From Escherichia phage ECO95 1-6-1: 1,764 bases of DNA. The notes beneath the pieces are model-generated. The model had not been told where the DNA came from and searched no databases. It saw only the letters and a list, made by a program, of their open reading frames with translations. The stretch's first letter is position 1. Every line of letters starts with the position of its first letter. Shown piece after piece: positions 204-1,764 of the stretch. The stretch lies in the sequence record OR845696.1. One strand, 5' to 3'. Position numbers and translations under genes: made by a program.

Positions 204-291
204 AATTGACGCGCTGTCGGTTGACGATTTTACCTGCTGGCTGGACGAAGCCAGCGCGCAAATTAAACACGAATACGACTCGCAGGCTTAA
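163..291 (+). CDS. GpE-family phage tail protein (E'-like ORF, probably expressed as a frameshift extension of the upstream chaperone)
   Basis: Frame 1, ATG 163-165 to TAA 289-291: MALLARWFHFPPSEIDALSVDDFTCWLDEASAQIKHEYDSQA*. The WFHxPPSE motif is what I recall for short GpE-family ORFs in P2-like prophages. It overlaps the last 41 nt of the frame-3 chaperone gene. Upstream of about 160 frame 1 reads as W/C/R-rich junk, so a frame transition lies near 160-185. The only Shine-Dalgarno-like element is AGG at 158-160, too close to the ATG, so independent initiation is doubtful. Confidence 0.65.
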   Translation: MALLARWFHFPPSEIDALSVDDFTCWLDEASAQIKHEYDSQA

Positions 292-387
292 TGCCTGCGG
301 GTTTCCTGACCCAAGCCCGGTTCACTCCTTCCCTGTTCTTTTTCCGGCAAGCAGCCTGTTACCGGGCAACTTATACGAGACACTATT

Positions 388-1764
388 TTGGCCAACGACA
401 TTATTACTCAGCTTCAGGCGCGTAATGAGACGTTGACGCAGGCAATAGCCCGTTACGGCTCACTCAACGCCAGCACGCTGCACACGCTCAGCTTTGAGCA
501 AACAAAAATCACCCGGCTTACGCAACAGCTCGCTAACTCTGCCCTTCGCCGGGAAGAGAACGATAAACAGCGCGCCGGGTTGCTGGAAAAAACACAAACG
601 TTCGCCGGACAGCTCGGCAAGCTCCTGAACGTTGAGACTCCCGACTGGAAGCTGCCTTACGAATTTCAGGGCAACATGGTCGATATGGCGGCGAAAGGCG
701 GCATGGATAACACCGCGCGGAACGCCCTGAGCCTGAATATCCGCGACTGGAGCCTTGATTTCAATCAGGATCAAAAAGATCTGCAAAGCGCCGCCGCCAC
801 GATGATCGAAGGCGGCGTCAGCGCATTGCAGGATCTTAGCCGCTACATGCCCGATATCGCCAAAGCCGCAACCGCCTCCCGCGACAGCGCGCAAAGCTGG
901 GCGCAGGCGGCTCTGGCCACTCGCGACAAACTGAACATCGCCCCTGACGACTTCCGTTTTGCGCAAAATATGCTGTACAGCGTGGCAAAAAGCGGCGGCG
1001 GCTCCGTTGCAGAACAAACCCAGTGGATTAACGCCTTTGCCGGAAAAACCGGCGCTCAGGGAAAAGAAGGCATTGCGGAACTGACCGCAACGATGCAAAT
1101 CGCCATGAAAAACGCTCCTGACGCAGGCGCGGCGGCAGCGAATTTCGACCATTTCCTGAAATCCGCCTTTTCGAAAGAGACGGACAGTTGGTTTGCCCGC
1201 CAGGGCGTGGATCTTCAGGGATCGCTGCTGGAGCATCAGCAAAACGGCATCGGCATCACCGAAGCGATGGCCCACATCGTGCAGATGCAACTGGAGAAAA
1301 TGAACCCGCAGATCCTCGACACCTTCAGGCAAACCATGAAAATTGAGGATCTTTCCGCGCGCGGCGACGCGCTACAGGCCATAACGGAGAAATTTAACCT
1401 TGGCGCGATGTTCGGCGATGCGCAAACGCGGGATTTTCTCGCCCCGATGCTGGCGAATATGGACGAATATCGCCAGCTAAAAGCCTCCGCAATGCAGGCG
1501 GCGGGGCAACATTTTATTGATGATGACTTCGCCGCGAAAATGACATCGCCCGGAGAACAGACCAAAGCGTTACAACTTTCACTTAACGATCTGTGGCTGA
1601 CCGTCGGCCTGGCGCTGATGCCCGCCATTGGCGAACTGGCGCAAAGCATCACGCCGCTGGTGCGGCAGTTCAGCGCCTGGCTGCGGGAAAATCCGGCGCT
1701 GGTGCAAGGGGTCGCTAAAGTCGTTGGCGTTATCTGGCTGTTCAACGGGGCGCTGAATATTCTC
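388..1764 (+). CDS. Phage tail tape measure protein (3'-partial, continues beyond window; 5' start uncertain)
   Basis: Frame 1 is open without a stop from 310 to the window end at 1764 (485 codons), checked codon by codon, with high GC at third positions. Translation is protein-like throughout: ...ANDIITQLQARNETLTQAIARYGSLNASTLHTLSFEQTKITRLTQQLANSALRREENDKQRAGLLEKTQTF... (coiled-coil-like N-terminal region), then ...FAQNMLYSVAKSGGGSVAEQTQWINAFAGKTGAQGKEGIAELTATMQIAMKNAPDAGAAAANFDHFLKSAF... (resembles the conserved phage minor tail/tape measure core), then a hydrophobic stretch LWLTVGLALMPAIGELAQSITPLVRQFSAWL...VAKVVGVIWLFNGALNIL. The start given is the first canonical in-frame start (TTG 388-390, weak GAG 8 nt upstream). 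The first in-frame ATG is at 676, which is too late. An alternative is initiation at ATG 291 in frame 3 with a frame change (see findings). Confidence 0.85.
   Translation, partial: MANDIITQLQARNETLTQAIARYGSLNASTLHTLSFEQTKITRLTQQLANSALRREENDKQRAGLLEKTQTFAGQLGKLLNVETPDWKLPYEFQGNMVDMAAKGGMDNTARNALSLNIRDWSLDFNQDQKDLQSAAATMIEGGVSALQDLSRYMPDIAKAATASRDSAQSWAQAALATRDKLNIAPDDFRFAQNMLYSVAKSGGGSVAEQTQWINAFAGKTGAQGKEGIAELTATMQIAMKNAPDAGAAAANFDHFLKSAFSKETDSWFARQGVDLQGSLLEHQQNGIGITEAMAHIVQMQLEKMNPQILDTFRQTMKIEDLSARGDALQAITEKFNLGAMFGDAQTRDFLAPMLANMDEYRQLKASAMQAAGQHFIDDDFAAKMTSPGEQTKALQLSLNDLWLTVGLALMPAIGELAQSITPLVRQFSAWLRENPALVQGVAKVVGVIWLFNGALNIL

Follow-up and report, generated by a model that had tools for sequence, protein, structure and literature searches.

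A TTG codon downstream of a spacer is the probable start of the tape measure gene in a Bcepmuvirus-type prophage tail module

Introduction

Where does the tape measure gene T begin in the tail module of Escherichia phage ECO95 1-6-1? The question arises from the reading frames of the window, that is, the whole stretch of 1,764 nt that was analysed (record OR845696.1). As the initial annotation correctly observed, the TAA stop of the E' reading frame (289–291) overlaps an ATG at 291–293 (TAATG), with AGG at 284–286. The open reading frame (ORF) that starts from this ATG runs in frame 3 and ends at 423–425, whereas the body of T lies in frame 1, which is open from 310 and offers only TTG 388 and TTG 433 as canonical starts before ATG 676. 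A run of five T was also correctly located at 339–343. These features had been read in several ways: T could have started at ATG 291 and lost its frame through a 1-nt indel (a sequencing error or a pseudogenising mutation), its 5' end could be recoded, or TTG could be a genuine start and 291–425 noise.

Materials and methods

A set of 40 related loci was assembled from GenBank, RefSeq E. coli genomes, GTDB genomes, IMG/VR, metagenomes, and Logan/ENA assemblies; a scan of a genome-contig collection returned only four loci. A protein search yielded 95 homologues of T, 82 of which have an N-terminus in the start region. Loci L010 to L042 were retrieved by an exact 35-mer at 418–452 and are therefore unusable for measuring conservation at 418–452. 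All conservation statistics were redone on 13 lineages that came from the protein search or from degenerate peptide patterns, without nucleotide-level bias.

Results

The window carries a chaperone pair followed by the tape measure gene

The window is part of a prophage tail module of Bcepmuvirus type, in which the tail assembly chaperone gene E, the E' frame, a spacer, and the tape measure gene T follow one another. The three reading frames are as follows.

3–203, + strand: 3' part of the tail assembly chaperone gene E, in frame 3, with its TGA stop at 201–203.
163–291, + strand: reading frame E', in frame 1 (+1/−2 relative to E), with its TAA stop at 289–291.
388–1764, + strand: tape measure gene T, first 459 codons, running off the window; the protein has 783 aa in a 98% identical relative.

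The window is matched at 100% identity by the unannotated record OR851066.1 (Salmonella phage S.Kent 1-2-1) and at 97% by a prophage region of S. Infantis SARB27. A prophage of E. coli, approximately 75% identical to the window, is carried by 195 of 5,426 complete E. coli genomes. The gene order in annotated relatives is Gp37-family protein, tail sheath, tail tube, tail assembly chaperone, a small ORF of the GpE family, tape measure, and then the GpU-like, X, and D proteins. T lies just 3' of the chaperone pair in a sheath-tube-chaperone-TMP cluster, both in the annotated S. Infantis and E. coli sequences and among the genes called on Logan, NCBI, and ENA contigs.

The E frame matches the Pfam family Phage_TAC_7 (PF10109; 28.3 bits versus a cutoff of 25), and its counterparts in relatives are annotated as 'phage tail assembly protein'. 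The E' frame matches Phage_P2_GpE (PF06528; 29.8 bits versus a cutoff of 23), and its counterpart in E. coli is annotated as 'GpE family phage tail protein'. The coordinates given here for E' follow PGAP, which annotates it in relatives as a separate ORF; the open frame extends back to 58. Since both domains score above the Pfam cutoffs, E and E' form a P2-type chaperone pair as judged by their domains. The X XXY YYZ heptamer that would mark the −1 shift of a P2-type pair is absent from the E/E' overlap, and the +1/−2 relation of E' to E is also found in E. coli relatives and in phage PhiKM. T matches PhageMin_Tail (PF10145, TP901 family; 47.6 bits versus a cutoff of 33.2) over residues 119–305, a domain that its homologues also carry. 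Across the 13 lineages, the third codon position is the most diverse in all three frames: 0.30 versus 0.04 and 0.12 in E (1–114), 0.39 versus 0.16 and 0.09 in frame 1 of E' (151–288), and 0.45 versus 0.22 and 0.15 in the body of T. A scan for promoters and terminators made no call within 270–480.

TTG 388 is shared by all related loci

388–390, + strand: TTG, the probable start codon of T; invariant in the related loci, annotated as the start in relatives, and found at homologue N-termini.

This codon was unchanged in 40 of the 40 related loci. At the protein level, the motif (M/L)AND[IV][IM]TQ opens 80 of the 82 homologues whose N-terminus falls in the start region; two homologues are written with an initial L, which points to a TTG start. 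The tape measure CDS is annotated from the equivalent of TTG 388 in the S. Infantis GenBank record and in two E. coli genomes annotated by PGAP; examples of relatives annotated from TTG are WP_075861871.1, WP_097751951.1, and EHB39190.1. Moreover, an in-frame TAA lies 15 nt upstream of TTG in E. coli lineages, and an in-frame TGA lies 12 nt upstream of it in Superficieibacter-type lineages. In those lineages, T therefore excludes all upstream sequence, and TTG is its sole canonical start.

The ORF that starts from ATG 291 varies between lineages

291–425, + strand: 44-codon ORF in frame 3, probably a product of chance; its ATG, frame, and length are not conserved, and it has no codon periodicity.
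292–387, + strand: spacer between E' and T, probably non-coding; 96 nt, with a pyrimidine-rich core and flat phase diversity.

The frame-3 ORF encodes 44 aa (MPAGFLTQARFTPSLFFFRQ..., the MPAGFLTQ... peptide) and stops at TAA 423–425. A Pfam search returned no match for it, and the window holds 26 ORFs of at least 20 aa, many of them in clearly non-coding frames. Its start codon is replaced by ACG in S. Infantis, Phytobacter, and Dryocola and by AAG or ATA in Superficieibacter-type lineages; the S. Infantis relative with ACG is 97% identical over the window. Lineages that have ATG 291 differ in its frame relative to T (0, 1, or 2), and the ORF extends over 18, 21, 29, or 44 codons or is fused to T. 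The pairing of AGG 284–286 with the anti-Shine-Dalgarno (anti-SD) sequence is −2.6 kcal/mol, about the median of all 20-mers in the window. None of the features noted around ATG 291 and the T run goes beyond what chance would give. The spacer, which measures 92–102 nt in relatives, has the highest diversity of the window, spread evenly over the three phases (0.31/0.34/0.33; 13 lineages), and all indels of the window that are not multiples of 3 are confined to it (1, 4, 7, and 9 nt). Because ATG 291 is missing or variable in frame, the spacer is aperiodic, and the T run within it is variable (see below), we regard 291–425 as a chance ORF.

The initial annotation had treated ATG 291 as coupled to E' and continuous with T save for a frame break at the T run. 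The stop and start codons do overlap in the window, but the ORF that follows varies between lineages, several of which have lost the ATG, and T homologues align from TTG 388; this reading is not supported. We also considered that the ORF may be a translated leader on which ribosomes re-initiate after terminating at E' and which modulates the initiation of T. A stop-start overlap permits termination-reinitiation without an SD sequence, and in the lineage of the window the ORF crosses TTG 388 and ends, at TAA 423–425, inside the conserved block of T described below. However, the E' stop is reached only by ribosomes that have shifted into E', and Superficieibacter, Phytobacter, Dryocola, and S. 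Infantis lack the ATG. The E. coli version of the ORF ends after 18 codons, approximately 45 nt before TTG. Neither the peptide nor the length of the ORF is conserved. A role as a leader is thus very unlikely, and the reading of 291–425 as a chance ORF is retained.

The T run varies in relatives with an intact T

339–343, + strand: T5 homopolymer inside the spacer, variable in length in relatives.

One rival reading lets T begin, as in P2, with an ATG that overlaps the E' stop, here ATG 291; its frame would then have been broken by a 1-nt indel, either a sequencing error or a pseudogenising mutation. The TAATG overlap of the window agrees with such an origin, as the T start of P2 also overlaps the E' stop (ATGAGTAA). 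Furthermore, a continuous ORF leads from the ATG into T in two lineages (L004; L005, L017, and L023), in which indels bring ATG 291 into the reading frame of T; there, gene callers give the extended proteins P0046 and P0065. The N-terminus of T in PhiKM is also approximately 31 residues longer, and the extension of P0046 likewise measures 31 codons.

Several results stand against this origin. The 96-nt spacer and the 44-codon ORF occur in the same frame, apart from a few point substitutions, in at least eight independent assemblies (L012, L015, L016, L018, L022, L027, L032, and L036), so the arrangement is not a read error of one record. In relatives whose T ORF is intact from TTG (753–791 aa), the T run is absent or consists of 3, 5, 6, 7, or 8 T; close E. 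coli lineages differ by T7 versus T8, and T is intact in both. The comparison of the homopolymer among relatives, which the initial annotation had proposed, thus points to no indel defect. The spacer shows no codon periodicity, and the indels that separate the lineages in it measure 1, 4, 7, and 9 nt. Stops lie 12–15 nt before TTG in some lineages, and the ATG is absent from others. The extensions of P0046 and P0065 use different frames over their second halves and hence have no peptide in common; the best explanation for them is that a pyrimidine-rich stretch with few stop codons is read through by chance. By a rough estimate, two fused lineages in about ten are close to the chance expectation for a pyrimidine-rich stretch of 31 codons. 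Finally, the spacer was examined as a decayed form of the 31-residue N-terminus of PhiKM type: local alignments of 13 lineages in three frames gave z values from −1.5 to +1.6, that is, no signal in any spacer frame. A start of T at ATG 291 followed by an indel is therefore highly unlikely.

For a genuine TTG start, the initial annotation had anticipated that homologues would align from at or near TTG 388, that the frame-3 peptide would find no similarity, and that the T5 run would be conserved in intact relatives. In substance these expectations were borne out: homologues align from TTG 388, and the frame-3 peptide is not conserved as protein, while the run varies from 0 to 8 T. Such variation among relatives with an intact T is a still stronger sign of non-coding sequence than conservation of T5.

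TTG 388 is preceded by a weak initiation signal

377–380, + strand: GAGA, a weak Shine-Dalgarno-like motif 8 nt upstream of TTG.

A purine motif (GAGA, or GAAA/GAAG) occupies this position in all lineages. The duplex of GAGA with the anti-SD sequence before TTG 388 (−3.0 kcal/mol) is no stronger than a random 20-mer would give. Translation of T would begin de novo at a TTG codon that retains no more than a GAG(A) remnant of an SD sequence, and it would probably be inefficient. The tape measure protein is needed in few copies per tail, and a weak initiation signal at TTG would therefore fit a low expression of T.

Two other starts in frame 1 were weighed against TTG 388: TTG 433, further downstream, and a near-cognate codon such as ATT 385. 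TTG 433 shares the invariance of TTG 388 and pairs slightly better with the anti-SD sequence (−3.3 versus −3.0 kcal/mol), and ATT 385 is in frame. However, the GAGACG motif ends only 2 nt before TTG 433, too near to serve as an SD sequence, ATT 385 is ACT in L008 and L047, and every annotation and 80 of the 82 gene calls use 388. In addition, the changes in codons 1–15 of T (388–432) are mostly synonymous at the third position or I/V/M replacements, and this coding-type variation indicates that 388–432 is translated and that TTG 433 is not the start. Both starts are accordingly extremely unlikely, and TTG 388 is kept as the start of T.

A stable hairpin surrounds the E' stop

277–303, + strand: conserved RNA hairpin with an 11-bp stem (277–287 with 293–303) and the loop UUAAU.

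The loop of this hairpin contains the E' stop together with the A and U of ATG 291, and AGG 284–286 is paired in its 5' arm. The predicted free energy is −20.3 kcal/mol (z −6.3), and none of 200 shuffled sequences was equally stable. Over 18 distinct variants, 96.9% of the cells are paired, versus 26–48% when the 3' partner is slid; the loop is freely variable and even accepts a 4-nt insertion. In the E. coli clade, one G-C pair is replaced by A-U, a compensatory change that also turns the last residue of E' from A to T. This change represents a single evolutionary event, and the covariation support is therefore modest. Only UUU follows the stem, with two of these U predicted to pair, and the terminator scan made no call here. 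A permissive Rfam search of the whole window returned only two chance-level matches (E = 5–8), both in other parts of the window. The hairpin may be a partial terminator or may stabilise the 3' end, which would favour the sheath/tube/chaperone message over that of T. A second stem in the spacer (GCCCGG 315–320 with CCGGGC 361–366) is mostly kept and is broken in some lineages without covariation; we make no claim for it.

The first codons of T are conserved at synonymous sites

385–474, + strand: block conserved at the nucleotide level, comprising T codons 1–29 with synonymous sites included.

Conservation in the window is highest over the first 29 codons of T, at both the protein and the nucleotide level. 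Where residues are shared, the same codon is used at a frequency of 0.876 in codons 1–29 versus 0.569 in the rest of T, and the best other window of 29 codons reaches 0.69. Among codons for invariant residues, a single codon is used in all 13 lineages at 12 of 22 positions in codons 1–29 versus 10 of 84 elsewhere (Fisher p = 6e-5). RNAalifold proposes that UUGGC 388–392 pairs with GCCAG 469–473 and that a hairpin forms at 393–435; nearly all of these pairs are invariant, with no compensatory change. In single-sequence folding, the block is of ordinary stability (z −0.7 to −1.9), the minimum-energy fold of the window's own sequence differs from the RNAalifold proposal, and the block matches no Rfam family. 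The synonymous conservation may reflect an RNA structure, a binding site, or a constraint that a TTG start and a weak SD sequence place on the initiation region of the gene.

A further possibility, which we put forward tentatively and consider rather doubtful, is that the hairpin at 277–303 and the block at 385–474 form one cis-regulatory module. Such a module, whether an mRNA structure or a site that binds a factor, would keep the ratio of T to chaperone, sheath, and tube low and fixed, and would make up for a TTG start that has almost no SD sequence.

Discussion

The comparison of related loci bears on where T begins and on what lies before it. Programmed recoding, in which ribosomes would initiate in frame 3 at ATG 291 and move to frame 1 at or near the T5 run to give a longer T, has a virtually negligible probability: a homopolymer does lie between the two frames, and the neighbouring E/E' pair uses recoding in this phage group, but the ATG takes any of the three frames relative to T or is absent, the T run varies from 0 to 8 T, the spacer is free of dual-frame constraint, and the ATG ORF of E. 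coli stops after 18 codons with a frame-1 stop 15 nt before TTG. A conserved start, a conserved frame relation, a conserved slip site, and a dual-frame constraint were looked for at the 5' end of T, and none was found. Judged from the sequences compared, the 5' end of T gives no support for a sequencing error, a pseudogene, or recoding.

Instead, T very probably starts at TTG 388; 292–387 would then be a non-coding spacer rather than a frame-shifted 5' end of T, ATG 291 a lineage-specific feature, and the ORF 291–425 a product of chance, a reading drawn from comparative sequence data. The invariance of TTG in 40 of 40 loci, the N-termini of 80 of 82 homologues, and the aperiodic spacer all favour it, as the initial annotation had allowed when it listed a genuine TTG start with 291–425 as noise. 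Its interpretation as a whole is partly supported: the layout of stops, starts, and the homopolymer that it described is correct, whereas the coupled start at ATG 291, the 1-nt indel, and the recoding that it derived from this layout found no support. The TTG start itself is already known, as public databases annotate relatives in this way, and the finding is an ordinary one.

For annotation, these results mean that T of this widespread enterobacterial prophage family should be called from TTG rather than from the ATG at the E' stop, as happened in P0046 and P0065, and that the apparent frame break is no ground for reporting a pseudogene or recoding. A low-copy structural gene with a TTG start, a nearly absent SD sequence, a stable hairpin upstream, and synonymous conservation hints at tuned translational control of the dosage of the tail-length ruler. 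The hairpin and the conservation of synonymous sites are real but modest leads, and nothing in them is surprising to a phage specialist.

The module can be compared with three references. The first is the FETUD operon of P2, which has the same succession of sheath, tube, chaperone E, overlapping E', and tape measure gene T, followed by homologues of U, X, and D, and whose gpE and E' belong to the same Pfam families as E and E' of the window. The two differ at both junctions. In P2, the ATG of T overlaps the E' stop (ATGAGTAA) with no spacer, whereas the window has a 96-nt spacer, probably non-coding, and a TTG start; P2 E' lies in the −1 frame with a T TTT TTG slip site, whereas E' of the window is in the +1/−2 frame and the window has no such heptamer.

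The second is Escherichia phage PhiKM (genus Bcepmuvirus), the nearest isolated phage, whose T is 34% identical over the 459 residues in the window. PhiKM shares the +1/−2 frame of E' relative to E, and it also has a hairpin directly after the E' stop, then a spacer, then T. Unlike in the window, T of PhiKM begins at an ATG with a strong GGAGG SD sequence and has approximately 31 more N-terminal residues, and the sequence of its hairpin is unrelated to that of the window. For phage Mu, a −2 frameshift has been reported (Xu et al., 2004, as cited in PMC5009743), and the +1/−2 frame of E' in the window and in PhiKM resembles this shift.

The third is the way in which GenBank and RefSeq-PGAP annotate this prophage family in Salmonella and E. 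coli: the tape measure CDS starts from exactly the equivalent of TTG 388, with no difference from the start proposed here.

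Frame change in the E/E' overlap

The E/E' overlap shows a change in codon periodicity, from the frame of E, the tail assembly chaperone gene, to that of E', at approximately positions 100-135. Within this zone lies the candidate shift region, CAG AAA CGA TTT CAG G, which is nearly invariant:

58-291: E/E' overlap, with the candidate shift region at 102-117

We looked for an X XXY YYZ heptamer in the overlap, and none is present. The shift may be a +1 slip at UUU C or a Mu-like -2 slip.

The E' stop and the spacer upstream of T

In the prophage family of the window, the E' stop is enclosed or directly followed by a stable hairpin (277-303 in the window). 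Phage PhiKM, whose tape measure protein T is 34% identical, has a hairpin at the equivalent place (positions 1329-1356 of its locus, L049) but of unrelated sequence. This suggests that the hairpin has a conserved role, as a candidate partial terminator or a candidate mRNA stabiliser.

The spacer core (321-345) is pyrimidine-rich (CU-rich) in all lineages, although sequence identity is low. Further downstream, GCA at 350-352 (in AGCAGCC) is a 3-nt insertion confined to the close lineage of the window itself; the other lineages compared have AGCC at this site (12/12). The core may serve as a putative ribosomal protein S1-binding leader for the TTG start of T, which has a weak Shine-Dalgarno (SD) sequence.

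Conservation and possible decay of T

Synonymous sites are strongly conserved across T codons 1-29 (385-474), with a same-codon identity of 0.876 versus 0.569 (Fisher p = 6e-5). A few relatives (loci L010, L018, and L034) carry an early stop in the T ORF (264, 425, or 293 aa), and the homologous protein P0012 has an internal deletion that begins immediately after residue 21. Prophage copies in decay, or errors of assembly, may account for these cases.

Comparison with P2 and PhiKM

In P2, E' lies in the -1 frame relative to E, whereas in the window, as in PhiKM and the E. coli relatives, it lies in the +1/-2 frame. Comparison of the T N-termini (window 388 onward versus L049 1402-1500) revealed that PhiKM T has an ATG start codon, a strong SD (GGAGG) and approximately 31 extra N-terminal residues (MSGQFSVGVVIGGMIGSTFRSAMSGTRRALDS), which T of the Salmonella/E. 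coli/Enterobacter clade lacks.
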